From: a virus
Virus record (IMG/VR): IMGVR_UViG_3300045974_000156
Coordinates: 1 to 64,000 of that record
Direction: 5' to 3' (one strand)
DNA length: 64,000 nucleotides
Below, one piece after another: positions 8,828-42,491 of this stretch; the stretch's first letter is position 1, and each line of letters opens with the position of its first letter. Both the position numbers and the translations under genes were made by a program. The notes beneath the pieces were generated by a model, which was given only the letters and a program-made list of their open reading frames with translations, was not told the DNA's origin and searched no databases.

Positions 8828-9460
8828 ATGCCGAAGAGTGCATATCTAGAGAATAAGACCATAGATTGGTTAAGGGGGCAGACATTCCTGTCTCCCCCTA
8901 CCAATACTTATCTTGGACTTCTAGTAGCCACTCGTGGGTATGCTAATTTAGTAAGACAGTCCATGGTATTTATGGGCGACACTGTAATACCGACCACTCC
9001 CAACGGTAGTGTATATTTATGCACTACTCAGGGCGTATGCGGTGGCACAGAGCCAGCTTGGAATACCGCCCCGGGTAGCACCACAGCAGACGGGGCGGCA
9101 GTATGGACTGAACAAACAAATGCTATAAAATCCGGTACGGTAGTGGAAGTTAATTTCACCGGTACGAATTATAGCAGGCTGGCTATACCGTCTAATATGA
9201 CGGTCTGGTCTGGAACCCAAGGGCTTGGAACAACAGGAGCCAGCGTAGGGACCAGCGGTCAAACCAGTAATAATTTCCAGCTAACTATGGCATTACCTAT
9301 AGGCTCTCAATGGGGGCTATGCTGGGCATCATGTTTATGGGATTCCGCAACTGGTGGGAATCTGTTATACTGGGGTCCGTTGGATAATCCTCAGTATGTT
9401 AATGCTAGCTCTATCGCACCAATAATTTCTGCTGCCGCATTAAGAATTACCGAGAACTAG
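8828..9460 (+). CDS. small virion fibre-subunit-like protein
   Basis: SAYLENKTIDWLRG...PTNTYLGL, EV...NYSR, WG...LWDSATGGNLLYWGPL. I recognise this pattern from small phage 'tail fibre'-type structural proteins; it has an inserted GTEPAW...TADGAAVWT subdomain. Confidence 0.65.
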   Translation: MPKSAYLENKTIDWLRGQTFLSPPTNTYLGLLVATRGYANLVRQSMVFMGDTVIPTTPNGSVYLCTTQGVCGGTEPAWNTAPGSTTADGAAVWTEQTNAIKSGTVVEVNFTGTNYSRLAIPSNMTVWSGTQGLGTTGASVGTSGQTSNNFQLTMALPIGSQWGLCWASCLWDSATGGNLLYWGPLDNPQYVNASSIAPIISAAALRITEN

Positions 9461-9462
9461 AC

Positions 9463-9491
9463 TTCACATCTTTTTGTTTTAGTGGTATGCT
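9463..9491 (+). promoter_or_regulatory. sigma70-like promoter for the 192-aa subunit gene
   Basis: TTCACA-17 bp-TATGCT with an extended TG. Confidence 0.65.
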
Positions 9492-9535: not shown

Positions 9536-10114
9536 ATGGCAATTAAATCAAACGACAAGATTTCCCCTGCTGAAAAAACAGTAGCAGGTATGGCGATGGC
9601 CCGTAATGAGGGTGGCGAGATTTTCGGACCAAAGTTCAGCGCCGACGTAGAGTGCGTGAGTCCAGAAGGGGCCCAGTGGAAAGATCGCTGGAATAACGCA
9701 GTTCAGCTCCAGGGCAAGATCGACCTCATGAACCGCTACTTCGGCACCAACACCGGAGTTGGAGGTCTTTACAACACTTGGTACGTTGGTCTTCACTCCA
9801 TCAACGCAACCAACAACGTCGCAGCAAACATGGGCGCTTGGGTATCAGCCGAAGTTGGCGGCTACGGTACATCCCGTCTAGCCTTTACTAACACAGCCCC
9901 ATTCACTACTCAGTCTAGCACCTGGTCTCTCTCATACGCCTTCACCACCAACACCTACACCGTGTCTGGTCTAGCCGTCTGCAACTATCAGGGTTCCGCT
10001 ACCGGAAACAGCACTGCTGGTATCATCTACTCGATGGGCGTGTTCAACGCAGGTTCCCGTCAGGTAATGCAGGCAGATACTTTAAATGTTACCCTTACTT
10101 TGTCTATGCAGTAG
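9536..10114 (+). CDS. highly expressed small virion structural protein (candidate major filament subunit)
   Basis: AGGAG RBS, own promoter and terminator, capsid-like codon bias. Motifs VEC...WKDRWNNAV..QGK..L...F...WYVGL and C-terminal DTLNVTLTLS. Confidence 0.7.
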   Translation: MAIKSNDKISPAEKTVAGMAMARNEGGEIFGPKFSADVECVSPEGAQWKDRWNNAVQLQGKIDLMNRYFGTNTGVGGLYNTWYVGLHSINATNNVAANMGAWVSAEVGGYGTSRLAFTNTAPFTTQSSTWSLSYAFTTNTYTVSGLAVCNYQGSATGNSTAGIIYSMGVFNAGSRQVMQADTLNVTLTLSMQ

Positions 10115-10152
10115 GAACGCTTAATACGTAGGTTGATAGTAACACCATCATT

Positions 10153-10193
10153 GATGGCGGCACCCTAGAATGGGTGACCGCCATCTGTGTTTT
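10153..10193 (+). terminator. rho-independent terminator
   Basis: GATGGCGG-CACCC / GGGTG-A-CCGCCATC stem followed by TGTGTTTT. Confidence 0.75.
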
Positions 10194-10198
10194 GAAAT

Positions 10199-10257
10199 TT
10201 GACTTCTTATTTTCAATGGTATACGGTCCTCTGATAGTTACTCTAACATTGGAGATC
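10199..10257 (+). promoter_or_regulatory. promoter plus RBS-sequestering hairpin for the HNH gene
   Basis: TTGACT-17 bp-TACGGT. GGT(C)CTCTGAT(A)GTTA (10225-10240) can pair with TAACATTGGAGATC (10244-10257), covering GGAG. Confidence 0.5.
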
Positions 10258-10261
10258 ACAC

Positions 10262-10936
10262 ATGGCTTTAACTAGACAGAGGAAAGTTACTCCCGAAATA
10301 GAAGCACAAATACGCAAAGAATATGAGGCAGGAGCATCCACTCCGTATCTAGCGGAGAAATATAAGATGTCTAGACCCACAGTTGGCTATTCTATTCAGA
10401 ATGCTGGAGGATCTCTAAGAGGAAGAGGCGGGCACATTTCTTCCCCAATAACTGGATTTGCAAATGATGAGATGCTGGTTAGAGAGGTTCACGCTGAATA
10501 TGAGAATGGTAAATCTCTTAAGGTTATAAAGCAGGAGAGAAATCTGAGTGCCCACGAAAGCATGATACTTAGCTCCTTCCGTAAATATGGTTTAGCAGTA
10601 AGAAACTGCGGAACTGTCCCTACGGTAGAAGCCTATATAGATAACCAAGGATATCGCAGGGTCAGAATAAACATAGAAGATCCCATGTGGAGTATGGCTC
10701 TATCAGGATATTATGGTGATAACAGGCGCACAGCCACAATCCTAGAGCATCGTCTAGTGATGGCTCGCAAGATAGGTCGCCCCTTGCGCGAAGAAGAAAC
10801 AGTCCACCATATAAATAATAACAAGCTAGACAACCGCCCCGAGAACCTTGAGCTTCATGTCGGTAATCATGGCAAGGGCGCGACACAAGCACACTGCCAT
10901 ACCTGTACATGTTTCAACGGCTCACAAAATATCTAG
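10262..10936 (+). CDS. free-standing HNH homing endonuclease with two N-terminal HTH-like repeats
   Basis: EHRLVMARKIGRPL...VHHINNNKLDNRPENLEL; repeated EYEAGAS/EYENGKS HTH starts. Confidence 0.9.
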   Translation: MALTRQRKVTPEIEAQIRKEYEAGASTPYLAEKYKMSRPTVGYSIQNAGGSLRGRGGHISSPITGFANDEMLVREVHAEYENGKSLKVIKQERNLSAHESMILSSFRKYGLAVRNCGTVPTVEAYIDNQGYRRVRINIEDPMWSMALSGYYGDNRRTATILEHRLVMARKIGRPLREEETVHHINNNKLDNRPENLELHVGNHGKGATQAHCHTCTCFNGSQNI

Positions 10937-10943
10937 CCCAGCG

Positions 10944-10972
10944 TTGACAACTAATCTGACCCTTGGTAGTGT
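10944..10972 (+). promoter_or_regulatory. sigma70-like promoter, probably giving a (near-)leaderless mRNA
   Basis: TTGACA-17 bp-TAGTGT with extended TG; ATG at 10980 and no SD. Confidence 0.6.
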
Positions 10973-10979
10973 AATGCCC

Positions 10980-11732
10980 ATGACCAAACCCAACGATGAA
11001 GTCGCAGCCGAAGCGCCCCTGGAGCATATTCCCGACGACCCAGGATACCACAATAAAAACCTACCAGAATCAATCACCAGAGTAATAGACGGCGGCACTT
11101 GGAAGAGGCAGGACACGGTGGTCCTGCTCCCAGCGGATACTCTAGTGCCCATGAAGTGCGCTATGTCCTGGTGGGGGCTTATATTTCCAGCCAATAACGG
11201 AGTAGTTAAGATCGGGCTCACCGGTCAGGAAGTCGGGGAAGCATATTCTAATGCTGTTCAGATGGTTCTAGATACCCCTCAACTACATAAATTTAAGTAC
11301 ATTCTTACAATCGAACACGACAATGTTCCCCCTCAGGACGGTGTATTACGGCTAATGAAGCGCATGGAAGAGTTCCCTGAATACAGTGCAATATCAGGAC
11401 TTTATTGGACTAAGGGAGAAGGCGGCGCACCTCAGATCTGGGGAGATATCAACGACCCACAGCTTAACTTTAGACCACAGCCTCCAGATCCGAATGGTGG
11501 TGTAGTTGAATGCTGTGGCATCGGTATGGGATTTGCGCTTTGGCGCATTGATATGTTCAAGGACGAGAAACTACGCAAGCCTTGGTTCAAGACAACATCC
11601 AGTAAAGAAGAAGGCATGTGTACTCAAGACCTATATTTCTGGACTGACGCTAGAAAATTTGGTTATAGGTGTGCCGTGGCGTGCGATGTACTGGTCGGGC
11701 ACTTCGACCACAAGACCGGAATCAACTGGTAG
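10980..11732 (+). CDS. GT-A fold (GT2-like) glycosyltransferase
   Basis: YILTIEHDNVPP (DXD-equivalent), ISGLY, GIGMGFALW, PWF, TQDLYF...GY...DVLVGH. Start revised from 10848 to 10980 to remove overlap with the HNH gene. Confidence 0.8.
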   Translation: MTKPNDEVAAEAPLEHIPDDPGYHNKNLPESITRVIDGGTWKRQDTVVLLPADTLVPMKCAMSWWGLIFPANNGVVKIGLTGQEVGEAYSNAVQMVLDTPQLHKFKYILTIEHDNVPPQDGVLRLMKRMEEFPEYSAISGLYWTKGEGGAPQIWGDINDPQLNFRPQPPDPNGGVVECCGIGMGFALWRIDMFKDEKLRKPWFKTTSSKEEGMCTQDLYFWTDARKFGYRCAVACDVLVGHFDHKTGINW

Positions 11733-11737
11733 AACCG

Positions 11738-12442
11738 ATGAGCGAACCCATTAGTTTTACTGATCCAGAATCTAGAGACTTCATCTGCACACCATACAGC
11801 ATCTGGTTTTTCGAGAACCAGATATGGAACACTATGTCTTGGTGTGGGATAAAGACGATGAAATCGCCTTCTGATATGTGGAATTATCAGGAGATAATTA
11901 GTAGAGTACGTCCTAGCCTTATAGTAGAGTTTGGGACGTATCAAGGTGGATCTGCACTATATATGGCAGAGATCCTGAGAACCCTTGGTCTCAAGTCTAG
12001 GGTCCTGACCGTAGACCCCAATGATTGGGGTATTCCAGATCAGGTCCGTAATCACCCGCTGATAGAGCTACATAGGACTATCTCCATAGACCCTAAGATA
12101 AAAGAAAGAATAAAGCTCCTGCGCGAAGCATACCCTGGTCCGATGTTTGTAATATTGGATGGGGATCACTCGGCAGAGAATGTATATCGTGAGCTACTGA
12201 TCATGAAGGACTTGACAGTTGCTGGCGACTATCTTATAAACGAAGACTCTAACATGAACGGGCATCCGATCATGTTGGATCACGACGGAGGATCAAGAGA
12301 TCCGGCTACATTTAAGCCCGGTCCTTGGGATGCGCTGAGAGCGTATGAAGAACAGTACCCGAATGACTACATTCACGATATAGCTATGGAGCATAGGTTC
12401 GGGTGGACACTAGCAACTGATGGCTATCTCTTGAGAAAGTAA
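11738..12442 (+). CDS. CmcI/cephalosporin-hydroxylase-family SAM methyltransferase (rhamnosyl O-methyltransferase-like)
   Basis: WCGIKTMKSPSDMWNYQEII..VRPSLIVEFGTYQGGSAL, VILDGDHSAENV..EL, GDYLINED, GPWDAL, DGYL. Start revised to 11738. Confidence 0.88.
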   Translation: MSEPISFTDPESRDFICTPYSIWFFENQIWNTMSWCGIKTMKSPSDMWNYQEIISRVRPSLIVEFGTYQGGSALYMAEILRTLGLKSRVLTVDPNDWGIPDQVRNHPLIELHRTISIDPKIKERIKLLREAYPGPMFVILDGDHSAENVYRELLIMKDLTVAGDYLINEDSNMNGHPIMLDHDGGSRDPATFKPGPWDALRAYEEQYPNDYIHDIAMEHRFGWTLATDGYLLRK

Positions 12443-12444
12443 CT

Positions 12445-13458
12445 ATGCCTAAAACAACACCACCAGGATATCCGTGTGGGTCAGCCTGCACAAGTAGAAA
12501 CCACCCCGGAGACTTGCTAGATTGCAATGATGTTAGCCTAATCGGACTACGATGGGCTCATGTAGAAGACACAGATTTACGAATGAGAATAATTCAGGAC
12601 GATTACAAGGAACTAATAAACCAATACAAGGAGCAAAAAATGGGAACACTCGATTACAAGGCAGTTACGACACTACCGGTAGGGCTAGAGGCTGCGAAGC
12701 TGCGTCAGCAGATGGAGGAACTACAGGCTAAGTTAGATAGCCTACCCAAATCTCCAGCAGACGAACTCAAGGCTAATCTAGATAAGCTATCCTCCAAGCT
12801 AACGGCTTTGGAGAATCCACCACCAAAGGTTACACCCGGTCTGAAGCTAGATCTTGGATGTGGTAATGCCGCTGCCAAGAAGCCCGGATTCATCGGCGTA
12901 GATATGGAGCAACGCGACGGTGTAGACTTGGTAGTAGATCTTACCAAGTTCCCGTGGCCATGGGCGGATAACTCAGTAGAGGAGGTTGTATGCTCGCACG
13001 TTGTCGAGCATATTCCAGCCATCGACCACGATTTCGTGCTGGTTAAGGATCCCGGCACCGACCTAGGGGTCTCTGTTCAGCGCGTCACCACCTACCCACG
13101 TATGGCGTTCTTTAATGAGCTATACAGGATTATGAAACCAGGGGCTAAGGCTTTTATCGAGACTCCCCACTGGGCATCAACCCGAGCCTATGGTGACCAG
13201 ACCCATGTATGGCCCCCTGTGTCAGAAATGTTCTTCTTCTATCTAAATAGGGAGTGGCGAGAGAATAATACTCCGCATTTCGACGCTAAACAGCGCCCGG
13301 AAGGGGCTAAGGGCGTCTTTACATGCGATTTCAAGTCCACCTGGGGCTATTCACTAGCCGGGTGGATGCAGGGGCGTAATGAGGAGTGGAAGCGTGACGC
13401 CTTGGATCGCTTCAAGGAAGCCGCTCAGGATACTCTCTGTACTCTGGTTAAGCAATAA
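12445..13458 (+). CDS. class I SAM-dependent methyltransferase with N-terminal coiled coil (possible start at 12640)
   Basis: KLDLGCG, GFIGVD, VDL..FPWPWADNSVEEV..SHVVEHI, NELYRIMKPG, TPHW...AYGDQTH. Confidence 0.85.
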   Translation: MPKTTPPGYPCGSACTSRNHPGDLLDCNDVSLIGLRWAHVEDTDLRMRIIQDDYKELINQYKEQKMGTLDYKAVTTLPVGLEAAKLRQQMEELQAKLDSLPKSPADELKANLDKLSSKLTALENPPPKVTPGLKLDLGCGNAAAKKPGFIGVDMEQRDGVDLVVDLTKFPWPWADNSVEEVVCSHVVEHIPAIDHDFVLVKDPGTDLGVSVQRVTTYPRMAFFNELYRIMKPGAKAFIETPHWASTRAYGDQTHVWPPVSEMFFFYLNREWRENNTPHFDAKQRPEGAKGVFTCDFKSTWGYSLAGWMQGRNEEWKRDALDRFKEAAQDTLCTLVKQ

Positions 13459-13460
13459 CC

Positions 13461-13508: not shown

Positions 13509-14540
13509 ATGGCTAGTCTTGCTATTACACATTCTTTCGTATCTGGAGTCGCAGACGGGGCAGATACTACTCTAGTCAGACCTTCTGACTGGAATAATAC
13601 ACATTCCATAACAGATCAGACATTTGATATATCCCACCTATCTCCAAGTGTAAGGCTAATAAATCCAAGACAGCTTGCTACTCTACGATGGTATCCGGCT
13701 AATTTGGTTGGACATACACCCCTAACAGGCTACACAGGAATACAAGGTTGCTGTTTTGATGGACTGAATATTTGGATAGGGTGTAATGGTGGGCTAAATA
13801 ATGTCTACAGATATAATCCCTATACTGGTGTGGTCACTACTGCTAAAACGGGAGTCACTACTCAAACTCTTTGTTTTGATGGTACGAATGTTTGGGGCGC
13901 AGCAGGCTCTACAGTTTTCTGGATTAACGCCGGGACACCGACAACGAATGGAACCATAACTGCCGGAACCAGCACTGTAGGTTGTTGTTTTGATGGGCAA
14001 TATATATGGGTTTCCGACGCAGGGTCCAACAATATATATAAAATCAACGCAGCAACAAAGACACTGGTTAGCGGTTATTCGGTCGGGCGAACCACCTATT
14101 CTTGTTGTTTTGATGGAACTTATGTCTGGTTTGGTGGATATCTGAATACAGGGCTAGTAAAATTTAATCCAACCACCAATACAGTAGTTAGTACTTATAC
14201 ATTCCCAACTTTTACAGGACCTGTCTGTTATGATGGTCAGTATTTGTGGACTGCGTATTATAATTCAATCGGACCCGGTGCTGTCTATAAAATTAACCCG
14301 AGTGACGGATCTATATTAAGCACTCTCACTCCGGGTAGCTATTTTTCTGCGGGTATTTGTTTTGATGGGAAATATATATGGGTATCCAGTATTGCTGGTA
14401 GCGTTGTTACTCAGATATCCACGGCAACCGGTACCATAATAGGTAATTACTCTGCAGGTACCAGCCCAATTAATATTTGCTTTGACGGGTCTAAAATTTG
14501 GGTTACTAATAATGGTGTTGGGTCTCTACAGATACTATAG
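13509..14540 (+). CDS. 7-bladed beta-propeller (YncE/Vgb-like) virion protein, paralogue 1
   Basis: Seven C-[FY]-DG-x-x-[IVL]-W repeats; N-terminal ITH...D...VRPSDWN..H motif. Confidence 0.8.
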   Translation: MASLAITHSFVSGVADGADTTLVRPSDWNNTHSITDQTFDISHLSPSVRLINPRQLATLRWYPANLVGHTPLTGYTGIQGCCFDGLNIWIGCNGGLNNVYRYNPYTGVVTTAKTGVTTQTLCFDGTNVWGAAGSTVFWINAGTPTTNGTITAGTSTVGCCFDGQYIWVSDAGSNNIYKINAATKTLVSGYSVGRTTYSCCFDGTYVWFGGYLNTGLVKFNPTTNTVVSTYTFPTFTGPVCYDGQYLWTAYYNSIGPGAVYKINPSDGSILSTLTPGSYFSAGICFDGKYIWVSSIAGSVVTQISTATGTIIGNYSAGTSPINICFDGSKIWVTNNGVGSLQIL

Positions 14541-14548
14541 GTCAAGAT

Positions 14549-15565
14549 ATGGCTATCACTCACACACTTGTTAATACAAATCTAGATAATTCTAATACAA
14601 CATTGGTGCATCCTGGGGATTGGAACGCCGATCATGTGATCGCCCCCGGGTCTATCACGCAGCAGATGCTAGCCCCCGGTGCCTATGTAAACTATGATCA
14701 GGTAGCACAACTCAGATGGTACGATGTTAATCGGACAGGATATGCTATCTCTACGCAACCGCAGCCTTGGGGTGGCTGTTTTGATGGTCAAAATATTTGG
14801 GTAGCAAACTATGGCGCATCTATTATGTCTAAGATAAATGTCAATACTTTGTCAGTGGCTAATGTAACAGTAGCGGGATCACTCACCGGTTGCTGTTTTG
14901 ACGGTCAGAATATATGGGCCACCAACACGGCTGGTTTATATAAAGTTCTAGCATCTACCGGAGCTACAGTGGGTACCTATACTATGCCATACGCATCATA
15001 CGCAAATTGTTGCTTTGATGGGCAGTATGTGTGGACGGCTAATTATTATAACACTAGTGTAACAAAATTTAATACATCCGGAGGCGTAGTAGGAACCTAC
15101 CCTGTTGGCGGTAATGCTTATTTCATTTGCTTCGATGGCACATATATTTGGACATATAATTATTCTAGTACCGCAGCCTCCATCAGTAAGGTCTTAGCCT
15201 CAAATGGAACCTTGGCTGGTGGACCATATTCAGCCCCTAATGAATCTGGAGGTCAAGGTGGCATTTGTTATGACGGAAAATATATTTGGGCGGGAGGGAC
15301 TTCTGTAGCTAAGTATGATCCATCTACTGGTACTAGAATTCAAACCATATCAACACTTGGTGGAGGAACTTGGGGCATGTGTTCAGATGGTTATTACGTA
15401 TGGACTGGCACAGGTAGTGCATCAGGGTATATTAATAAGATTAGGTGTTACGATGGTGCCCTGATAGCTACCCCGACCATAGGCGGCACTGCTGTGTCAC
15501 CCTGTTATGATGGTGTCAGAACTTGGGCTTTTTCATACGGTGGTAACACAGCGTATATTTTATAG
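14549..15565 (+). CDS. 7-bladed beta-propeller virion protein, paralogue 2
   Basis: Seven CxDG..xW repeats; same N-terminal ITH...VHPGDWN..H and QLRWY motifs. Confidence 0.8.
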   Translation: MAITHTLVNTNLDNSNTTLVHPGDWNADHVIAPGSITQQMLAPGAYVNYDQVAQLRWYDVNRTGYAISTQPQPWGGCFDGQNIWVANYGASIMSKINVNTLSVANVTVAGSLTGCCFDGQNIWATNTAGLYKVLASTGATVGTYTMPYASYANCCFDGQYVWTANYYNTSVTKFNTSGGVVGTYPVGGNAYFICFDGTYIWTYNYSSTAASISKVLASNGTLAGGPYSAPNESGGQGGICYDGKYIWAGGTSVAKYDPSTGTRIQTISTLGGGTWGMCSDGYYVWTGTGSASGYINKIRCYDGALIATPTIGGTAVSPCYDGVRTWAFSYGGNTAYIL

Positions 15566-15580
15566 TATTATGGTAACCAT

Positions 15581-16606
15581 ATGACTATTACTCATCAAAA
15601 AGTTAATACATACTCGGACGGAACACCGGCTACCGTTGTTCAACCTAGCAATTGGAATGCTACTCATACGATTGGGGCAGGGACCATAGGTTTAGCAGAG
15701 CTAGCCACAAATGCCATCCTAAATAGACAACAGATCGCCCAACAAAGATGGTACCAGGCTAACAAGACGGGAACCACTATCACTGTAAGCACAGGACCAT
15801 CTTACTGCTGTTGTGATGGTCAAAATATATGGGTATCTAACTCAGGAACTACAACAATATCAAAGATATCCATAGCAACCAAGACAGTAGTGGGCACCTA
15901 TACCGTAGGGACTAATCCTTATGGATGTTGTTATGACGGTCAAAATATCTGGGTATCTTGTTACGGCTCTAATAGGGTGTACGTTATAAAAGCATCTGAC
16001 GGTAGTGCAGTTAATAATTACGCGACAGGAACTGGACCTATCGGTATCAGTTTTGATGGTCAAAATATATGGTGCTGCAACTATGGTGGCGGCTCAGGTA
16101 ATACAATTACTAAATTACTGGCTAGCAACGGAAGCTTAGTCGGAACGTACTCCACAGGCACAGGTCCAAATTTGTGCTGCTATGACGGCACTTATATATG
16201 GACTAGTAATTACGGACCAGGAACAGGTAGTACTGTATCCAGATTATTGGCGTCGGACGGTAGCTCCCAGGGTACATTCGCGGCAGGTACTACGCCAGTC
16301 GGCATGTGTTTTGACGGTATTTATATTTGGGTATGTAATAACTCTGGAACCACCATTACAAAGCTCAAGGCGTCTGACGGATCCTCAGTAGGAACCTACA
16401 CACTAGGTAGTCAACCACAAAGTTGTTGTTTTGATGGTAGGTATGTTTGGGCAACGAACTATGCCAGCGGAACTGTTTATAAAGTATCCGCTGGAGATGG
16501 AACCATTCTTGGACCTTACACTGTAGGATCACTACCGATGGGGATTTGCTTCGATGGTGCCAATATATGGGCTGTAAATAACGGTGGAAATGTAACTCTT
16601 CTATAG
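15581..16606 (+). CDS. 7-bladed beta-propeller virion protein, paralogue 3
   Basis: Seven [CS]xDG..[IV]W repeats; ITH...VQPSNWN..H and QQRWY motifs. Confidence 0.8.
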   Translation: MTITHQKVNTYSDGTPATVVQPSNWNATHTIGAGTIGLAELATNAILNRQQIAQQRWYQANKTGTTITVSTGPSYCCCDGQNIWVSNSGTTTISKISIATKTVVGTYTVGTNPYGCCYDGQNIWVSCYGSNRVYVIKASDGSAVNNYATGTGPIGISFDGQNIWCCNYGGGSGNTITKLLASNGSLVGTYSTGTGPNLCCYDGTYIWTSNYGPGTGSTVSRLLASDGSSQGTFAAGTTPVGMCFDGIYIWVCNNSGTTITKLKASDGSSVGTYTLGSQPQSCCFDGRYVWATNYASGTVYKVSAGDGTILGPYTVGSLPMGICFDGANIWAVNNGGNVTLL

Positions 16607-16899: not shown

Positions 16900-17100
16900 A
16901 TGGACTGCCAAGCCGCTATATCATGTCGCTCGACCATCAGGGAGACTCTTGCCCCCAGTGATGAGTCGTGTGATATGGAAATCCAGATCCCCATCGAGAT
17001 AGTGTACAGGGTCAGGTCTAGACCGAGCCGCGTGATCATTCCGCGCCGTAGACCAGATCCGGCTACCTATCCGACCGGACCACCGGCTAGAGGTATCTAG
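16900..17100 (+). CDS. 66-aa hypothetical protein carrying one acidic repeat unit and a basic Pro/Arg tail
   Basis: Fills the gap before the giant gene; RETLAPSDESCD resembles the giant protein's repeat. Start revised from 16867. Confidence 0.5.
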   Translation: MDCQAAISCRSTIRETLAPSDESCDMEIQIPIEIVYRVRSRPSRVIIPRRRPDPATYPTGPPARGI

Positions 17101-17102
17101 TA

Positions 17103-32100: not shown

Positions 32101-35100
32101 TAGAGACCGCTCAACCTAAGGATGATGGAGATCATAAACTTAACATCGTTGCAGAAGAGTCAGACAGTGTGCAGCCTTCTGATGATCAAGATATAGGTAT
32201 ATTATCAGGTTCTGATTACTCTCAGATGGAATTCGTACAAGCTCCTGACGAGTCCCTAGAGCTAGGATTAAACCTAAGTGCTTATAATCTAGATAGCACC
32301 CAGCCGCAAGATGACGAAGACATGTCGCTGGCTGTAGGATCTGACCAAACAGAAGGTGATCTACAGTCCAGTGACTCTCAAGAGTCTATTTTCCAGGTAT
32401 ATGTTCTCTCTGAATCAGTACAAGCCGCAGAGGATATCTCAGACTTATCATTAAACGTATTCTCCGAGGAAGAGGACTCTGACGCTCAAGGATCTGATCA
32501 GGATAATGCTAACGTAATACTAACATCGGATATAGATGAGAATGTACAGGGCTCAGAGTCAGAGGATGCTCAAGCCGCCTATACTGCTGATACATCAGAA
32601 TACGGGCAAGCTCTAGAATCAGAAGAAGTTAATAACATACTGTCTTCTGATCTATCAGAGGAAGCCTCTGGGTATGATAACCAAGATCTGGTCATTTACC
32701 TACTGGTAACTCAATCCGACGACATCCTGGGGTATGAGTCTGCTGATGCCCAGGTAGCCGTCTCACTAGATATATCAGAATCCGTATCAGGGTATGAAAA
32801 CGAAACCCAGGCTATAGAAGGCGGGGCTCAGAGCGAGTACGCCCAAGGTTCTGACGAGCAGGATTGTATATTACTGATGGTATCCGTGGATGAGTCAGAG
32901 TCTGCCGAGCCTTCCGATGCATTAGATATCACACTGCTGGTAGGTACCGAAGAATTAGAGCAGGCTCTCGCAGCCGATCAGGAAGTTGACTCGATTAATA
33001 TAGAATCAGCAGAATCTTACGATATCTGGGAAGCCTCAGATCTTGAGCAAGCATCAGCTATCTACTCAGATTCTGTCTCTGAGTACGAATTAGGCTATGA
33101 CGAAGATGATAGTGGTCTAGTACTAGGAACCGAACTTTCAGAATCCAGCATAGGATCTGACCTAAGTGACGTAACTTCAATAATAACCTCTGAGACTTCC
33201 GAATATGTATCTCCTGATGATCAGGGTGACTCCTCACTAGACTCAAATAATGACCAGATTGATAGTCTACAGGTTTCTGACCTAGAATCTGCCGCAGGAT
33301 TACTACAACCTGCCGATTCTGAAGAAGACATCACCTCTGACGACAATTACGATACTGTTGAAAATCTGGCTGCGTCCGAAATAGAATCCCTAGAGAGCAC
33401 CGACGAACAAGACAATATAGGGAACCTAGTAGCCGAGTCCCTAGAATACTTGGCAGGTTCTGACGACCAAGATGCTGATTTCAATATAACTGCATCACTA
33501 GATGAATCTGTAAACCCGAGTGACGAATCTGATTGTGCGTTAATCCTTGAGCTAGATATTACCGAAGATGCAGATCCTATGGATCTGGAGTCTGAGTCGG
33601 AAGATCTGACCACTAACCTCAAGGACTTCTCAACACCAAGCGACGAAAATGATTCTTCTCTAGATTCAAGCAACGAGGAAGTTGATGAACTGCTAGGATC
33701 TGATTTAGAAGCTGCCGGGTTAATGCAGCCTGCGCTAGATGAAGAGGATTACAACACTACTTATGACAATTCCGATCTAGGGCTCAACCCAGGTGTATCT
33801 GAAATAGACTCTCTAGAAGGCTCCGAGGCACAAGATAGTTCAGGTATCTTCGTAACACAGGCTGTAGACTATTCAGAAGGTTCTGATGAGCAGAATTCTA
33901 ATTTCAGCATACAGGTATCCGTAGACGAGTCCTCAAGTCCAAGCGATGAGTCCGATTGTGCGCTAGGATTAGTACTAGAGCAATACGAAAATATCTCTGC
34001 CGCTGAAGATGAGTCAGACAAGACAGAGAGCTTCTCTGCTGTTATAAGTGATTCCTCCGCTTCAAGCGAGGAGCAAGATTGCCTATACAGCATATCAGCA
34101 CAGACATCAGATGCCCCCGAAGGTGTAGATTACGAATACTCCGGTATTTCAAGAACCCACGACGAAGCCGAGTACACTGAAGCTGTCGATGAGCAGAATT
34201 GCACCATAAGAACACCTGTATATTATGTAGACTCCGGGTCATCGGCTGACGATTCAGACCTAGGTCTAAACGTATCTTGCTCTGATTCTGAAAGCCCCAG
34301 AGCCCTAGATGTCAACGAACTAGGACTAAACCTATCAGTAGAAGAACAAGAGCAAGCTCAAGGATCTGATACTGAAATCGGGGCAATACCTATTGCGGAG
34401 AATATCAGCGAGTTCTCTGAGCCTAGCGATATATCAGACGCAGCACCTTCTATCACCAGTGTCGAGTCAGACGACCAGGTAGCCGACGATTCTTACCTGA
34501 GTGCTTACTCCGGAGTCCTGACCCACTCAGAGTCCCTTGACGCAGCAGACGACCAGACTTTATCTCTAGACAGCTTCAGCGAAGAATCTGAAACCTGCAT
34601 AGGCTCTGATGATTGCACGATGTCGCTAGATCTTGGAACTGGTTATCAGGCTTCCCAGATATCGGTTGATTCTGAAGAAACAACCATGGTGTTCAGAAAT
34701 GGTTACAAGACCGGAAGCATAACACTATCTCTATTCGATGCCGGGTCGATGTTTGATCGAGACATATCAGACCAAGTATTCTCTTACGACGACTGCGACT
34801 CGATCCAGCCTCTCGGAGCCACAGAGCTTGAGTCCCTGACCCCCTCTGATTCACAGAATCAATCTAGCCAAAACGGAAATAACAGTACAGAAAGTGTCAA
34901 CGCTTCGGACGGGTCTATAGCCGGTGTGGTCATAAACCCAAGAATTTCAGAATCCTGCATCTCAACTGATGGTAATGACGTAATAGAGCGTATCGCTTCT
35001 CGTTTATCTGAATCCGCTGTCGCATCTGATAGGTATGTGGTTGGAATTGCGTTCGGTAGAACCTCAAGCGAGCGCAGCGTCCCGACTGACTTGATGACTC

Positions 35101-35954: not shown

Positions 35955-35986
35955 GGTATACTAGACCAGATTTTATAGGAACTAAC

Positions 35987-36076
35987 GTGAAAAAGACTTT
36001 TACAATTATCCCTAATATGACTGACGGGTGGGACTATATCCTACAGATAACTAACGTCAATAAGGTTCGGAGATAA
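35987..36076 (+). CDS. 29-aa ORF resembling the C-terminal strands of an FN3 domain (not in the ORF track)
   Basis: AGGA RBS 6 nt before GTG; MKKTFTIIPNMTDGWDYILQITNVNKVRR; stop lies 1 nt before the next ATG. Confidence 0.45.
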   Translation: MKKTFTIIPNMTDGWDYILQITNVNKVRR

Positions 36077-36077
36077 T

Positions 36078-39000
36078 ATGACAGTCGTTACTAGCGCGAG
36101 CGCCTCTGTGTCAGGTACCAACATAACAGTTAGCTGGTCGTGCCCATATTATCCTTATAGTTGGACGATCAGTGGAAGTATTTACAATTCAGTTCCTGGA
36201 GGCAGTAGAAGTTATACATTTACAGGGGTAGGGGCTGGCACTTATTCATTTCAGGTAGGTCCAACGCCTGGTGGTGGTATAGCTGATACATCTACAAGGG
36301 CAACCAACTCAGTAACAGTATTTACACCGCCTAGCGCGCCAAGAACCATAGTAGCCTCACTGGGTACTATAGATGCAAATGGCAATTACCCCATAAACCT
36401 GTCTTGGCTAGCACCCTCCAGTACAGGAGGATCGGCTATCACCGGATATACAGTCACACCCTCTCCTGCTGCACCTGGTTCTACTATATCAATAACAGGT
36501 ACTACAGCGGTAGTCAGTAAATTAGCTAGAGGGCAAACATACATATTTACGGTACGGGCTGGTAATGCATATGGTACAGGACTTGGGGCGAATTCAAACT
36601 CTATCCAGGATGGTATTCAGACAGTACCGGGAGCCTCAACTGGTGTAGTAGCCTCAACATCCGGAATAGGTGCAGGGGTAACGATAAATCTAAGCTGGAC
36701 TGCCCCTGTGGATACCGGAGGTGTGGCGATCACTGGCTACAACGTAGCACCTTCACCAGCCATACCGGGCAGTACTACCGTGGTGAACCTGGCTGCCAAG
36801 ACTGCTGTTATTTCAAATATTCCATACTCTGCACCTCCCACTCTGTATACAAATACGTTCACTGTAAGTGCTAGCAATATAGTAGGCACAGGTCCGGATA
36901 GCGACCCTTCCAACAGCATATATCTGTTATACGGTACTCTACACAACAATGGGTATCTGGATTACCAAACAACATCACAAGATCCGTTCGATTCTGGTAA
37001 TAATCTAAGACCCAAATTAGAGGTAGACACCCTAACACTAACAGGACCGACAGTAGATAAATATGCCAAGAGTAATAATCCATTTGGCGAAAGAGAAGAA
37101 TACGTAACACCATATGATAATTACAAAGGTGGTTTCAAGCTTGGAAATAACACCTACATAGACGACCAATTAGCAGTACCTGAAGATGCCTGTGATGGAA
37201 TAAAGTCACTAAAGGTAAAACAAGAAGAGTACTCGACACCAAAAGATAACCTATTCGATGCAGCTAAGATCGTCAATAAAGAGATACAGGAAAGTCCCAC
37301 AACATTTGATAAGGTCAACGCCGGTCTTCATGTGTTTTCAGAACAGGAGGACGACCTACTCTCACCTTTAGAATATAACGATCTCAAGTTAAAAATCAGT
37401 GTTTCATTCTTAGAGCAAATGCCAGAACCCCAGGATGGGATAGAGTGGGAGTATATCTCCGGGCTTCACTACGGTATTTATCGTCGCAACCAAGAAGAAT
37501 ACCCACACCCAGACGATGCATGTGATTGTAGGTATAGTATCGGGGCTAAGGCTAAGGGGGCTGAAGCCCCAACCCTTAGCGATGGTTGCCTTACAGCTCT
37601 ACCTTACAACGATAAGATAAAAGAATACGTATCAGGCCCTGCGGATGGTTATATAGGTGGGCATCATGTGATGGCTGAGTATATAGACTCTGAGACACAA
37701 CCTATATTGCAAGATGGTAATGATGCTGGTTTTGGGTATTTTGCAGAACAACATGATGATAACGATACAATATTTACAGACTCTGAAACGTCCTTTAGAT
37801 ACTATGGCACTACAGGATTTGAAAAAAATCTAGAAGGACCCCTGGACAAATGGGCTAATAATATAAGTTATGTAATAGGCTTCAAGGATGACGGACCTAT
37901 ATGCTATGAGGACCAAAAAGCAGGCATTATTTGGGGTGTAAATCAAGAAGATTATGCCACTGCATCGGCTGAAGGGACCAGTGAGAAGATCGGTTCTCTC
38001 GTGTATGGCGAGGAGCTTGATTATAATTCTGCCTGGCAGGACACCAAAGATCCTATTCAGTTCTGGGTACCTGCCTCACAACCATGGCTTGCTAGCTCAG
38101 GTATAAGTTCTGTAAATAGAACGACAGTAACACTTCCACCAGAAATGTTAAAGGGTGATGTACTGATCCTTGTATTTATTCATTATAACAGCAGCATAGA
38201 TGCTGCCGGGTATACAAAACTGGGTACTAGACAACTATTAGATTGGGGCGACGGTGCCTTCAGTTATGCAGATATTTATTGGAAACGTGCAACTGGGCTA
38301 GAGTCACCACTCCCCATAGAAGTTAACGATGTAGGCACATTTGCCCAGATATATGCTTTCCGAGATTGTAATCCTGAAAACCCGCCAATCGAGCAGTTCC
38401 AGATGGGCGATGGCAGTACACTATCATTTACGTCCAGTATAGATAGCACAGAACCAATATACATCGGTATTACTTCTACCTTGGGAGATTATGGTCCACT
38501 CATTTCCGTAGCCGATCCTTTGTACTTCCCAGTCTCAGGTGTCAATCTTTTTAATCTCGGAGTCGGCGTAAACGTAGAAATATGGGAGGGTTACCAACCA
38601 CAGGCTGGTTCCATCTTGTCAGGTACCTCTTCTCCGACTGGTGGTGGTTGTGTAAATGCGTTATTTAATTTCATTGCCATACCTGGGTACTGGACCAATG
38701 TTTCGACCGCAGCAATTATCACTACTGGTGAGATAAATGAAGAAAAAAATGTCATAGCTTTTGATGACTATACCTTCGATTATAAGAGCGGTCATGGTGG
38801 CTATGTATATAATAGAGCCCTAGAAGAGACAATAACCCTACAGGATCAGCCGTTATTCCATGACGAAATGTTCTTGATAGATCCCTATAAATATGCGGAA
38901 GAGTCTGATATGTGTGATGTGACCCCATCAGACGACTCTAGGGCTGGTAAGTATGTACTGGTTGAGTCAGATCAGGGTGATGTCATAGACCTGGATTACA

Positions 39001-42000
39001 AATTCACTACCGTACAGTTCCTACTATTAGGTCAAAAAGAAGATAAGATATCCGCCCCGAAGGATAAATGCGACTGTCATATTTCAGTTAATAGTGATAA
39101 ATCAGAGTCCATAACAACCAACGTGGCTCCATTCTTCGTCGGAAATGGACCCCCAGCAGTCATATCAAAGCCTGCATTAAATAACGGAAGAACACCCAAT
39201 CTAAGCATTACACCATGGGCAGCAATACTACCGAGAGATTTTCTATTAGCCACAGTTCATGCCTCAGACGTTCCTCCTGCATCAGCATATGCCGCTAATG
39301 CCGCAGTAGCCGTAGCAGCAGCTACCGCAGCAAATGATGTTGCTGTCGCCGCAGCCGCAGCCGCAGCCGCAGCCCCTAGTGACGTAAACCTTGCAGCAAT
39401 TGCTGTATCCACCGCTGCTGCCGCATCCAAGGCTGCAACGACTTCTGCCATAGCATCATCTGTAGCCACAGATGCAGCCGATCCTGCTGGTGCTGCAATG
39501 CGGGCTGCCACCAACGCTGCCGCAACTGCCGCAACTGCCGCCAGAACAGCAGCTAATGCAGCTACTGCTGCCGCTAATGCCGCCGCCGCCATCGTGGCTG
39601 CCGCCGCCGCCTTAGAGGCTGTAGATCCTGGCGCTGCCTTACGAGCCGCAGAGGCTACTGCCGCCGCAGCCTCCGCATATGTACTTGACACCATAGCTGC
39701 TGCAATTTCAGCCACCAGTGACGCAGCCATTGCAATCTCTAACGCCCGTAATGCCGCTGCAACTGCCGCTAATGCCGCCGCCGCCGCAGCCAACATAGCC
39801 ACGATTGCTGCCACCTCGGCATCAAACGCATCAAACTCTTTAATCAATGCCGCCGCTGCAATGGTAGCTGCTGCCTTGGGTAATGCAAATCTCATTGCCG
39901 CAAACTCTGCTGCCCGAACTGCTGCAACCTCAACCTCAACCGCCGCAGTGGCTGCCAATACCAGAAGTCTCGCAGCAGCAAATGCATTAACTGCCGCCGG
40001 GGCTGCTGAAGCCGCAGCTTCGATAGCCACCATAGCCATAAACGACGCTGCGGCTTCTCCTTATGATCAGGATCTAGCTAACGCTGCCGCATCCGCTGCT
40101 AGTGCTGCTGCTAGTGCCACCGTCGTCGCCGCAACTGCCGCAGCACAAAATCATGCAGCCTTTGTAACTGCCATTATCCCTGCATCGAGCCGCGCAGACG
40201 CAGCCACTACAATTGCCAATAATGCCTCTAGTGCTTCAGATGCTGTTGCTTCCATAGCAGTAGCTTCTCCATTAAATATTCACATAGTCGCAGCCTCTAA
40301 TGCAGTAAACGCCGCAGCGATTGCTGCATCCACTTACGCTTCTGACGCCGCAGATGATGCTGTTGCGATTACCAATGCTTCTCTGGCTGCCGATGCTGCC
40401 GAAATAGCAACTTCCGATGCTGCTAGCGTGACTACGCCAATCGCAACCGCTGGGTTTATTAATAGCCAAGCAGTCCTGAATGCTATATCTACAGCCGCAG
40501 CCGCAGATCCTGCTGCTGTTATCGCTCATGCCTCCAGAGCCTCCACAGCCGCCGACATAGCTCTCGCCGCTGCCGCTGCCGCAACAACTGCTGCTGATGC
40601 CGCTGATGCTGCTGCAATTGCAACTGCCGCAGCCACGACACCAACTGCCGCTGCAACTGCCGCCGACGCTACAGCTACAGCCACCGCAACTGCCGCCGAC
40701 GCTACAGCTACAGCCTCGGGTAATGCAGGACTTGTGGTTTTCACAACGGAAGACTCAAACCTCGTTACAACCGCAAAAACTTCTGCTGGGTATGCAGACT
40801 CTGCCGCAACTGCTGCATTCCGAGCAGCAGATAGGGCTACTGCCACAGCCTTAGATCCTTCCGTTATTGCCGCAGCCAGAGCAACAACAGCCATTGCCGC
40901 AGCCGCAGCCGCTCCAGATGACCAGAATCTAGCTCATGCCGCAACTGTTGCTATTGCTAATGCAGCCGCAAACCCACCCAAGGGTATAGTATTCCATAGT
41001 GATTGGACCGTCTTACCAGTCTGCGGTCCAATGCACGCCTTCTGGAAGATAACGACAGGCGCAGAGCCACCTGTCATAATACCTTCAGTCCAGAACCATG
41101 TAGTTATGGGATCCATTACTGCTTATAGAGGTGTCGATGTAGCTTATGCTGATCCTATTACTGATATAGGACCAAGCATGTCTGATACGAAGAAGGGTCC
41201 CACTTCTGGTTATGGTGGTCAAACTTACGACGGATCTACACCTTATGTCCCGGGTGAACAGCAATACCCTATATACATATATTATCCAAAGCTTGTACCC
41301 CTCCAAACACTGAGTTATCAATTACCATCACCCTCACCAAAGGGACCTCATGAGAGGATGATTGCAATCACAGGGTACAATCTAAACGGCGGCGGTTCCG
41401 GCTTTTATCCATCTACTACTAAAGATCCAGATCCTAAGACACACATCTTGCCTGGGCTCATGCCTTATACAAGAAATGTACTGAGCGGGAATGGACCTAC
41501 GATACCCTATACATACAATGATGTCCTTCAAGTAATTAATGGATCCGGGTCAACGATCTCTAAAACAAATCAAGTTGGAACCGGATGGGGAACTTATATA
41601 TTCGACGGTGACACTATTAATGAAGGTCCATCCGAAGCACCTCTCCCAGTTTTACAGGTGTACGCACCGACTAGGACCACATTCTATGGATTTGTGATAT
41701 CTCTACGGGGTTCGTTTATCTCAAATACAGAGAATGCTGGCGTTAATATGAATCGGGTGTCAGATGACCCTAATTATGTAACATCTCTGGATAATTACGA
41801 AGTAGAAGTTAGACCTACTAGGGCTGCACAAAAAGGACCTATAGATCCACCAGATGTTGAAAGTGAACGTCTTTGGATGCCAGGTGGTCCGTGTAAAGAG
41901 AGAGATGTCAAAGGTCCTATAGATTATTGTGATTATGAATACGTACCTGCAAACATGTTAGTATCCTATGATGATCGCCTATTAACAGCTAAACCTTCGG

Positions 42001-42491
42001 ATGCCTGCAAGTCATTACTTCGCAGTGCAAATAAGTACTCCGATTCCGAGTACTCTGCCAAACCAATGGACGAAGGTATCGGCGGTACATCACTTTACGG
42101 TATAGATTCTTCTACAGATGAGTACACCGCACCTTCGGACGAATACGGAGCCCCGCAAGAAGGTGAACAAAAATATGATATAGGGGTACCTGTAGATGAT
42201 TGTGGTGGTGGTGTTCAAGGTCCAAAGGGTCCTAGAAATATCGTAGAGTACCTCGGTGGAATGGAAGCAGAAGAACCAGGTATAAAGAGCAATAACTACC
42301 AAGAAGAAGATCTATATCCAAGCGAAGAATCGGACGTAGATGTTAAGTGGGGTTATCGTGCTGTTAATGTTGGCGAGAGGGCGCGTCCGTTAGATTATTA
42401 CCTCGAAGCTAACAAAATAGGACGGGATATACCTACCGACTCTGTAGAGGTCTTGGGGTGGGAAGATGCCGTTGTTATCAAGTCTCCATGA
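36078..42491 (+). CDS. 2137-aa virion-associated protein: FN3 domains, acidic repeats, beta domains and a long Ala-rich insertion
   Basis: About 3 FN3 repeats (PSAPR...LSWLAPSSTGGSAITGYTVT...YIFTVRAGNAYGTG), E-x5-D repeats, two GD-x-L...AYR-type domains, and an Ala-rich tract at ~39280-40970. Confidence 0.85.
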   Translation: MTVVTSASASVSGTNITVSWSCPYYPYSWTISGSIYNSVPGGSRSYTFTGVGAGTYSFQVGPTPGGGIADTSTRATNSVTVFTPPSAPRTIVASLGTIDANGNYPINLSWLAPSSTGGSAITGYTVTPSPAAPGSTISITGTTAVVSKLARGQTYIFTVRAGNAYGTGLGANSNSIQDGIQTVPGASTGVVASTSGIGAGVTINLSWTAPVDTGGVAITGYNVAPSPAIPGSTTVVNLAAKTAVISNIPYSAPPTLYTNTFTVSASNIVGTGPDSDPSNSIYLLYGTLHNNGYLDYQTTSQDPFDSGNNLRPKLEVDTLTLTGPTVDKYAKSNNPFGEREEYVTPYDNYKGGFKLGNNTYIDDQLAVPEDACDGIKSLKVKQEEYSTPKDNLFDAAKIVNKEIQESPTTFDKVNAGLHVFSEQEDDLLSPLEYNDLKLKISVSFLEQMPEPQDGIEWEYISGLHYGIYRRNQEEYPHPDDACDCRYSIGAKAKGAEAPTLSDGCLTALPYNDKIKEYVSGPADGYIGGHHVMAEYIDSETQPILQDGNDAGFGYFAEQHDDNDTIFTDSETSFRYYGTTGFEKNLEGPLDKWANNISYVIGFKDDGPICYEDQKAGIIWGVNQEDYATASAEGTSEKIGSLVYGEELDYNSAWQDTKDPIQFWVPASQPWLASSGISSVNRTTVTLPPEMLKGDVLILVFIHYNSSIDAAGYTKLGTRQLLDWGDGAFSYADIYWKRATGLESPLPIEVNDVGTFAQIYAFRDCNPENPPIEQFQMGDGSTLSFTSSIDSTEPIYIGITSTLGDYGPLISVADPLYFPVSGVNLFNLGVGVNVEIWEGYQPQAGSILSGTSSPTGGGCVNALFNFIAIPGYWTNVSTAAIITTGEINEEKNVIAFDDYTFDYKSGHGGYVYNRALEETITLQDQPLFHDEMFLIDPYKYAEESDMCDVTPSDDSRAGKYVLVESDQGDVIDLDYKFTTVQFLLLGQKEDKISAPKDKCDCHISVNSDKSESITTNVAPFFVGNGPPAVISKPALNNGRTPNLSITPWAAILPRDFLLATVHASDVPPASAYAANAAVAVAAATAANDVAVAAAAAAAAAPSDVNLAAIAVSTAAAASKAATTSAIASSVATDAADPAGAAMRAATNAAATAATAARTAANAATAAANAAAAIVAAAAALEAVDPGAALRAAEATAAAASAYVLDTIAAAISATSDAAIAISNARNAAATAANAAAAAANIATIAATSASNASNSLINAAAAMVAAALGNANLIAANSAARTAATSTSTAAVAANTRSLAAANALTAAGAAEAAASIATIAINDAAASPYDQDLANAAASAASAAASATVVAATAAAQNHAAFVTAIIPASSRADAATTIANNASSASDAVASIAVASPLNIHIVAASNAVNAAAIAASTYASDAADDAVAITNASLAADAAEIATSDAASVTTPIATAGFINSQAVLNAISTAAAADPAAVIAHASRASTAADIALAAAAAATTAADAADAAAIATAAATTPTAAATAADATATATATAADATATASGNAGLVVFTTEDSNLVTTAKTSAGYADSAATAAFRAADRATATALDPSVIAAARATTAIAAAAAAPDDQNLAHAATVAIANAAANPPKGIVFHSDWTVLPVCGPMHAFWKITTGAEPPVIIPSVQNHVVMGSITAYRGVDVAYADPITDIGPSMSDTKKGPTSGYGGQTYDGSTPYVPGEQQYPIYIYYPKLVPLQTLSYQLPSPSPKGPHERMIAITGYNLNGGGSGFYPSTTKDPDPKTHILPGLMPYTRNVLSGNGPTIPYTYNDVLQVINGSGSTISKTNQVGTGWGTYIFDGDTINEGPSEAPLPVLQVYAPTRTTFYGFVISLRGSFISNTENAGVNMNRVSDDPNYVTSLDNYEVEVRPTRAAQKGPIDPPDVESERLWMPGGPCKERDVKGPIDYCDYEYVPANMLVSYDDRLLTAKPSDACKSLLRSANKYSDSEYSAKPMDEGIGGTSLYGIDSSTDEYTAPSDEYGAPQEGEQKYDIGVPVDDCGGGVQGPKGPRNIVEYLGGMEAEEPGIKSNNYQEEDLYPSEESDVDVKWGYRAVNVGERARPLDYYLEANKIGRDIPTDSVEVLGWEDAVVIKSP

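Follow-up and report, generated by a model that had tools for sequence, protein, structure and literature searches.

A candidate hyper-expanded beads-on-a-rope virion fibre encoded by an IMG/VR virus record

IMG/VR virus record IMGVR_UViG_3300045974_000156 is 83,891 bases long, with a CheckV completeness of 42%. Its first 64 kb (64,000 nucleotides, the window of this study) encode two small proteins of 210 and 192 amino acids (aa) and, further downstream on the same strand, two very large ones of 6283 and 2137 aa (Table 1), and all four open reading frames (ORFs) were confirmed. An earlier, sequence-only reading of this DNA had proposed that the 6283-aa protein (hereafter the giant) docks small subunits along its repeats and thereby templates a filament. 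Combined with family and structure searches, repeat analysis and comparison of related loci, we consider it probable that the region encodes a hyper-expanded 'beads-on-a-rope' virion fibre, with the giant as rope and the small proteins as beads. On the plus strand the genes run from a large terminase, a portal, two unknowns, a T4 gp21-type prohead protease and the 210-aa and 192-aa genes, through an HNH endonuclease, a 294-aa unknown, two methyltransferases and three propeller-like paralogues, to the 6283-aa gene, the 2137-aa gene and a T4 gp23-type major capsid gene (3.2e-69). Because of this gene order, the locus is placed within the head gene cluster of a distant T4-like phage, as judged from sequence; the closest capsid relatives are from uncultured huge phages, at 30-35% identity. 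The region of the giant gene (17000-36100) is covered without a single difference by one 40,208-base contig from a second assembly of a pond metagenome run, which may be the record's own source, and the giant frame is therefore not an assembly artefact. Among the public runs carrying the stretch (one, the pond metagenome), no RNA run is listed.

The giant truly bears a short repeat, with a 20-residue period of E-x5-D type detected both by autocorrelation and by weight matrix. Identity autocorrelation over aa 3001-5900 peaks at lags of 20, 60, 40 and 80 residues (0.171, 0.146, 0.142 and 0.135, respectively; mean 0.090), and an iterated weight matrix tiled this core with 122 units. The spacing of neighbouring core units is exactly 20 residues in 76 cases, 21 in 17 and 22 in 11 (20-22 in 104 of 121), while spacings of 40-43, 50 and 82 point to about 15 missed units, giving an estimate of about 137 units in the core. 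A second matrix, built for the linker-type units found outside the core, detected 28 units in aa 1-3000 of the giant, five in aa 5901-6283 and 14 in the 2137-aa protein, and at the same threshold gave no match in the 11,337 residues of 32 other window proteins. The giant thus has 155 detected units (122 in the core and 33 elsewhere) and about 170 estimated ones, so the previous figure of 150-200, made from length, was a fair one. The sequence-only reading had also described about three units of a different repeat near the C-terminus; no period stands out in those 56 residues.

The core units follow the consensus [SA]-[ED]-[LQE]-[SE]-E-S-[LVA]-x-[GPA]-S-D-x-Q-D-x-[GS]-L-x-[LI]-[GTS], with hydrophobic residues at unit positions 2, 6, 16 and 18, and the linker-type units are a less acidic version with the frame E-x3-P-x-D-x2-D ... 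h-x-h, where h is hydrophobic. Asp and Glu together make up 23-30% of most 250-residue blocks of the core (16% in one block) and Lys and Arg 0-2%, and Ser is frequent at three unit positions. No tandem repeats were found at the DNA level in the acidic core, and the units are therefore old and diverged. When the core (aa 3000-5900) was compared with proteins of 3,455-10,996 aa, it matched itself alone among the 925 candidates scored.

The 210-aa protein is, by sequence comparison, a member of the Gp80 family: it matches Pfam PF23140 (Gp80, 'podophage GP4 fibre I protein') at 1.6e-16 with 61.2 bits, against a cut-off of 27, and phrog_240 at 5.7e-8. The latter family also contains gp80 of phage GP4 (7e-33) and the whisker protein gp5 of phage Bas63 (6.2e-29), and a phmmer comparison with the GP4 chain 8jou_a gave an E-value of 0.0045. 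A small domain resembling tail proteins is inserted at about aa 39-98. The 192-aa protein is more distant. BLASTP found no match between it and the 210-aa protein, tblastn found none for it in 50,697 phage records, and its nearest relative (P0005, on a 39-kb contig) is 63% identical. An AlphaFold model of the 192-aa protein had a pLDDT of 72.8, with residues 1-28 below 50, and when it was compared with 48,161 PDB chains the top match was 8jou_a, the GP4 fibre I protein (Z 7.7, rmsd 3.8, 116 of 136 residues aligned), with the whiskers of Bas63 (9mt4_K, Z 6.5) and of the Sf14 neck (9c39_K, Z 6.3) also matched. PRMT barrel domains and parts of large chains from two other tailed viruses fall in the same range (Z up to 7.0). 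Pfam Gp80 is matched at E<=0.01 by 23 of the 46 members of the 192-aa family (best 1.7e-8), and one relative reaches 29 bits against the cut-off of 27; furthermore, all five relatives tested match phrog_8123 and one of these five also matches phrog_240. The structural match, the Gp80 matches among relatives and the PHROG bridges agree, and we conclude that both small proteins are of Gp80 type, the 192-aa one probably as a divergent branch and as a candidate for the abundant bead.

A search of the 192-aa fold against the predicted viral structures in BFVD gave 30 matches at E<=0.001, nearly all to unnamed proteins, among them some from tailed viruses of haloarchaea and from lipothrixviruses, which are filamentous viruses of archaea. 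A complex of two 192-aa copies with three units of the core (60 residues, aa 4281-4340) was also predicted, using a shallow family alignment (A1) for the 192-aa protein and none for the rope piece; a rope alignment (A3; 55 three-unit pieces, MAFFT) was left unused on account of its shifted registers and 144 columns. The interface score was 0.00 against a mark of 0.32, a 'no answer' that counts neither for nor against binding; the predicted fold of the partner was itself uncertain.

Gene pairing in related genomes links the 192-aa family to repeat proteins of the same kind. For this purpose, 46 loci encoding 192-aa relatives were fetched, 37 from IMG/VR and nine from metagenomes, and a neighbour was counted as paired if it was a same-strand ORF of at least 150 aa, no more than 3 kb away, with a 20- or 40-residue period. 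Such a neighbour was present in 30 of the 46 loci, compared to one of 386 ORFs further off, in keeping with the proposed co-occurrence of this family with E-x5-D-type repeat genes. Under a stricter rule, which asks for a chain of at least three [hydrophobic]-x-E-x5-[DE] motifs spaced 19-22 residues apart, the count was 19 of the 46 loci against 0 of 506. Among the 16 loci lacking a repeat neighbour, 11 have less than 3 kb of downstream sequence and two more satisfy the motif rule at a 26-residue period. Clustering at 70% identity left 16 clusters. A repeat neighbour was seen in 12 of these; in the remaining four, one flank extends for no more than 2.9 kb (52 bp to 2,863 bp). The pairing spans podophage-like, myophage-like and other contexts.

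The small ropes of these relatives have 8-23 units and are rich in Ala and Thr, with L-[ST]-E-[SA]-h-x3-D every 20 residues as the neutral counterpart of the giant's units. Some carry tip domains, namely LamG in L036 (3.3e-20) and an N-terminal domain resembling the GD...AYR domain of the giant (see below) in L004, as read from its sequence; the giant would therefore have the same plan, enlarged. Two cultured phages show comparable gene pairs. In GP4 (MH638294), gp80 is followed by gp79 (325 aa; 7948-8925, minus strand), which has a 20-residue period of Gly or small and hydrophobic residues, matches phrog_19041 'virion structural protein', found no match in a sequence search of the PDB and may be the GP4 rope. 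In the 43.6-kb Vibrio phage VS-ABTNL-3 (MF497422, 7972-9480), PVS_14 (329 aa, about nine repeats of about 21 residues) precedes the bead gene PVS_15 (167 aa, phrog_8123 type, 2.9e-51), and both are annotated as hypothetical. The small rope ORFs of L003, L005 and L017 end in a C-terminal run of three to five arginines, which may be an attachment or packaging signal. In nine of the 30 loci with a rope neighbour (L004, L014, L015, L023, L026, L033, L040, L041 and L044) the strongest period is 40 rather than 20 residues, which means that unit types alternate there, perhaps because the halves of a bead dimer are non-equivalent or because there are two kinds of bead.

Codon usage was compared with that of the capsid gene (codon adaptation index, CAI, 0.731). 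The 192-aa gene scores 0.636, within the range of the capsid, protease and decoration-like genes (0.62-0.73), and the 210-aa gene, at 0.422, lies among the ordinary genes (0.40-0.52), so that the capsid-like bias of the former and the ordinary usage of the latter were both confirmed. The bias of the 192-aa gene suggests a very high copy number; this codon usage, typical of high-copy head genes, fits a bead needed in hundreds of copies. Two further genes share the capsid codon bias (5807-6682, CAI 0.713, and 49667-50959, CAI 0.727) and are probably high-copy head proteins, the second of them matching head-decoration and virion structural PHROGs. As to expression signals, a terminator had been claimed for the 192-aa gene, and a GC-rich hairpin with a U-rich run does follow it (RNA fold of 10105-10265, z -2.29), which a simple terminator scan had missed. 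A promoter-like site also precedes the gene as claimed, but such sites are barely enriched over shuffled sequence (four in 2 kb against 2.4 expected).

One piece of the evidence first offered for docking did not hold. The N-terminal arm of the 192-aa protein had been aligned with repeat units of the giant; its best ungapped match is indeed the unit at aa 2082 cited at that time (six identities in 20 positions, BLOSUM62 score 26), but of 300 20-mers drawn at random from the other proteins of the window 21% match at least as well, and the repeat matrix gave the arm -5.95 bits, a score reached by ten of 31 other N-termini, which puts the alignment at chance level. Similarity within the family begins at residue 26 or later in 28 of the 37 IMG/VR loci, leaving the arm outside the conserved part; conservation of the arm is limited to eight close homologues of the 192-aa protein, and in several loci the 192-aa-type domain forms the end of a longer protein. 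On these alignments, the arm is not a conserved donor strand.

The N-terminal half of the giant consists of globular domains strung between rope units. Eight copies of an all-beta domain of about 200 aa were found in aa 1-3000, with a conserved G-D, then A-Y-R, then N-P-I-D (the 'GD...AYR' domain), together with two copies of another beta domain of about 190 aa that was read from sequence. A model of the GD...AYR domain (pLDDT 81.9) had generic jelly-roll binding domains as its best VIA matches (Z up to 7.5) and no Foldseek match at E<=0.001. Searching the giant in four pieces against Pfam and PHROGs gave a weak LtfC match (E 0.07) and phrog_1084, the latter at the C-terminus, and nothing else. 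A search with the C-terminal 204 aa against 1.84 billion representatives returned only two distant proteins, in which the last 65 aa or so weakly match a repeated beta-sandwich-type domain of about 55 aa. Atlas look-ups gave viral clusters without names; for the C-terminus, LtfC and BppU_N made up minor shares. To read the tips as lectin-like and the C-terminus as an anchor, as previously proposed, would be reasonable. The 2137-aa protein combines one or more fn3 domains (Pfam fn3, 6e-12) with its 14 linker-type units and at least two GD...AYR domains. An Ala-rich insert of about 600 aa (about 39100-41000) interrupts one of its GD...AYR domains and holds the sole DNA tandem repeats of both giant genes.

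The genes between the beads and the giant are of several kinds. The enzyme-like genes possibly modify the fibre; in the closest related contig (L002), the 192-aa homologue is directly followed by counterparts of the 294-aa protein (4.8e-130) and the second methyltransferase (3.1e-84). Between these genes and the giant gene lie three tandem paralogues of about 340 aa (13509-16606) with weak beta-propeller matches (DUF5074, YncE-like). The HNH endonuclease, which has a helix-turn-helix domain (10262-10936), is inserted directly after both bead genes, and another endonuclease is found at 51023-51595; mobile nucleases are scattered through the head module.

Table 1 Coordinates of the features discussed, numbered from the first base of the window
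Feature	Position	Strand	Remarks
Bead gene, 210 aa	8828-9460	+	ORF confirmed; Gp80 (fibre I / whisker) family
Promoter-like site before the 192-aa gene	9463-9491	+	9/12 consensus matches with TG; weak evidence
192-aa gene	9536-10114	+	ORF confirmed; probably divergent Gp80-type, phrog_8123-type branch
GC-rich hairpin and U-rich run after the 192-aa gene, terminator-like	10149-10203	+	13-pair stem, then UGUGUUUUG
Three enzyme-like genes: 294-aa unknown, CmcI-type methyltransferase (PF04989, 1e-51), class I methyltransferase	10848-13458	+	
Giant gene, 6283 aa	17103-35954	+	ORF confirmed
N-terminal half of the giant (aa 1-3000)	17103-26102	+	Ten globular beta domains with 1-5 rope units between them (28 units)
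Acidic repeat core (aa 3001-5900)	26103-34802	+	122 detected / ~137 estimated units
Five linker-type rope units near the C-terminus (aa 5906-6065)	34818-35297	+	Linker-type matrix
Stretch rich in small and hydrophobic residues, without demonstrable period	35358-35525	+	
C-terminal domain of the giant, ~133 aa	35553-35951	+	phrog_1084 (unknown function), 6.4e-6; candidate anchor
Second repeat-bearing gene, 2137 aa	36078-42491	+	ORF confirmed

Taken together, the proposal of a repeat protein that docks small subunits and templates a filament is partly supported: the architecture matches the solved fibres of GP4, Bas63/Sf14 and A1002, and the bead family and its co-occurrence with repeat genes speak for it; the arm similarity is lost as evidence. 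In the fibre envisaged here, the giant would be the rope, each 20-residue unit offering two short strand-like stretches (positions 16 and 18, then 2 and 6), and the beads would be the 192-aa protein, abundant by its codon bias, and the 210-aa protein, rarer and the closer Gp80 relative. Bead dimers would clamp round the rope, a rope strand completing the open beta-sandwich of the bead. The sequence-only reading had one subunit docking on each repeat; the solved examples suggest one dimer per unit instead, since Bas63 and A1002 use about 20-24 rope residues per dimer and one 20-residue unit fits one dimer. On that basis a rope would hold about 155-170 dimers. Each dimer site adds about 2.7 nm in solved ropes, for a fibre length here of roughly 0.4 micron that would be set by the number of units; the 1 micron proposed earlier assumed a fully extended chain and is set aside. 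The ten N-terminal globular beta domains are probably binding modules strung between short rope stretches, and attachment to the particle is probably through the small C-terminal domain. Bead docking, stoichiometry, length, attachment site and the targets of the tip domains are all inferred from such comparisons. Most likely, the giant is a rope enlarged about 7-20-fold over those of its relatives and 14-80-fold over the solved examples; dimers of the 192-aa bead would supply most of its coat and the 210-aa bead a minor part. Tentatively, and as less likely than not, the whole 2,900-residue acidic core may be coated by about 140 dimers of the 192-aa protein to give this fibre of about 0.4 micron, its length written in the repeat number; the strongly acidic rope loops together with the methyltransferases and the 294-aa protein would then tune a polyanionic, possibly glycosylated brush that catches hosts in pond water.

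A number of observations weigh against a beads-on-a-rope fibre at this locus. The 192-aa protein itself matches no Pfam family, and the Z of 7.7 for its model is 'middling' by the tool's own scale. An hhalign comparison with the Gp80 set gave no match with the shallow family alignment (A1), and with a deeper family profile (A6) an E-value of 0.0044 over 107 columns at a probability of 7.9%, the latter alignment spanning the same residues as the structural one. High acidity sets the units of the giant far apart from the small ropes, which are neutral and rich in Ala and Thr, and matrices derived from the giant find two or more units in only three of 37 related loci. Both bead genes lie 7 kb upstream of the giant, on the same strand, with the homing endonuclease, the three enzyme-like and the three propeller-like genes intervening. 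The C-terminal domain of the giant was compared with known collars without a convincing match (BLASTP E 0.7 for GP4 gp77 and 24 for the Bas63 collar), and the best score for a Gp77-type collar (PF23148) was 13.1 bits in the 83.9-kb record, itself 42% complete. No rope chain was matched when GP4 gp79, two of the small ropes and a linker stretch were searched against PDB sequences, although the GP4 rope may lack a deposited sequence. Finally, about 310 beads per rope would be a heavy and unprecedented investment.

The acidity of the core in particular allows for a partly coated fibre, in which docking is confined to the neutral linker-type units (33 of them in the giant, 14 in the 2137-aa protein) and the core is a bead-free, extended and perhaps glycosylated polyanionic stalk. 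The composition of the core is unlike that of any small rope adjoining a bead gene, enzyme genes lie within the cassette, and the frequent Ser at three unit positions would suit such a stalk. Nevertheless, the core retains the E-x5-D frame and the hydrophobic positions of the linker units and small ropes, and it holds strictly to a 20-residue phase along 2,900 residues, a regularity unnecessary in a mere spacer; with the very high copy number suggested by the codon bias of the 192-aa gene, this makes the partly coated form unlikely. The units might instead fold by themselves into a beta-solenoid or multi-chain beta-fibre, the Gp80-type proteins just capping or joining it. Regular short beta-type repeats build fibres in other viruses, as in the shafts of adenovirus and reovirus, but the units here have only some four hydrophobic positions out of 20 and roughly one residue in four is acidic, which speaks against a self-folding fibre, and the steady pairing with bead genes and the solved precedents favour docking, so that we regard self-folding as quite unlikely.

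Two further explanations follow from the position of the genes in the head module. That the 192-aa protein is a high-copy capsid decoration protein, linked to the repeat gene merely through a shared head-appendage module and not by direct docking, would account for its gene lying between the protease and capsid genes with a capsid-like codon bias, and PHROG labels of the bead family do say 'head protein' or 'head decoration'. Those same labels, however, cover GP4 gp80 and Bas63 gp5, whose solved structures show them as fibre beads on a rope; the genes for the collar and whisker of Bas63 are likewise inside the head module, and adjacency to repeat genes holds in podophage-like, myophage-like and other contexts alike, all of which renders the decoration role very unlikely. 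The prohead protease of T4 cleaves at (L/I)-x-E, and L or I stands two residues before the conserved E in 44 of the 122 core units, so the giant, whose gene lies between the protease and capsid genes, could be thought of as an internal head or scaffold polyprotein cut into acidic peptides. This idea of units as cleavage sites was dropped after the bead/rope homology and co-occurrence were found, and is extremely improbable given the ten globular beta domains in the N-terminal half and the homologous small repeat proteins, which bear LamG or other surface-type domains and adjoin fibre-bead genes.

To our knowledge, beads-on-a-rope fibres have been seen by cryo-EM only since 2023 and in very few phages, where each carries 2 to 11 bead dimers, and a full-text search of one open-access library gave only the A1002 and Bas63 papers on rope proteins and none on giant ropes. 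The locus described here and the 30 related loci suggest that the design is widespread in uncultured phages, that a second bead branch (192-aa or phrog_8123 type) is paired with a recognisable 20-residue rope of E-x5-D type, and that merely adding units can enlarge such fibres by an order of magnitude. If the coating of the core is real, the fibre would exceed the phage itself in length and be more than ten times longer than the longest solved fibre of this kind. A Gp80-type gene beside a gene with a 20-residue period may also serve as an annotation rule for many 'hypothetical' repeat proteins. The system offers a testable case of length control by a template and could in principle be used as a modular scaffold displaying hundreds of copies of a small protein.

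The two parallels drawn in the sequence-only reading, with tape-measure proteins and chaperone-usher pili, hold in principle but as analogies only, membership in either system having found no support. Like a tape measure, the giant would set the length of a structure by its own length; tape measures, however, are helical, lie inside the tail tube and leave on infection, whereas the giant matches no tape-measure family in Pfam or PHROGs and its gene is situated between the prohead protease and capsid genes. In chaperone-usher pili each subunit completes the next one with a strand from its own N-terminus. An externally supplied strand would likewise complete an incomplete beta-sandwich here, but one long chain would supply all strands, and the 192-aa protein has no strand of this kind in its arm; general scans of 40 window ORFs revealed neither a chaperone nor an usher, with no targeted search made.

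The solved phage fibres are closer. Fibre I of the Ralstonia podophage GP4 (PDB 8JOU) shares the Gp80 family with the 210-aa protein, its gp80 is the best structural match of the 192-aa model, and gp79, encoded after gp80, shows the same 20-residue period as the ropes here. It differs in having five dimers and an Ig-like fibre-tail adaptor, gp77, compared to about 155-170 units with no Gp77-type adaptor found in our record, and in a rope that is separately encoded and not, as here, hyper-acidic and fused to many globular domains. In the collar-whisker assemblies of the myophages Bas63 and Sf14 (9MT4, 9C39), with two dimers per rope, rope and small C-terminal domain form a single polypeptide with the rope N-terminal, as in the giant, and the whiskers are among the best matches of the 192-aa model. 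The Bas63 report describes an Ig-like collar protein whose N-terminal rope is wrapped by whisker dimers 'like beads on a string', the rope running through grooves and completing the incomplete whisker sandwiches, and calls the assembly homologous to GP4 fibre 1 with its separate rope and five dimers (PMC12609058). In the Bas63 collar chain (gp4, 9mt4_G), about 48 rope residues precede Cys52, the first cysteine of the globular part, and carry two dimers, about 22 per dimer, which is far fewer dimers than proposed here, and the collar family phrog_3977 is not matched by the C-terminus of the giant. The Bas63 genes for collar gp4 and whisker gp5 (MZ501086, 3307-4139) lie between the portal and prohead protease genes, and the head-module position of beads and rope therefore has a solved precedent. 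For the chain-like fibre of the Pseudomonas podophage A1002 (nozzle-rope gp39 with gp40 and gp41 dimers), the published report gives 11 dimers of two different small proteins with 16% identity, bound by augmented beta-sheet to a rope of about 300 Å and 226-268 residues (residues 243-468, 3-32 and 96-107), at 20-24 residues and about 27 Å per dimer (PMC13730344). With its 11 dimers, and with a rope that belongs to the tail nozzle protein gp39, A1002 differs from the fibre proposed here; its rope ends in a small Ig-like domain, and its use of two weakly similar bead proteins is mirrored by the 210-aa and 192-aa proteins of this locus.

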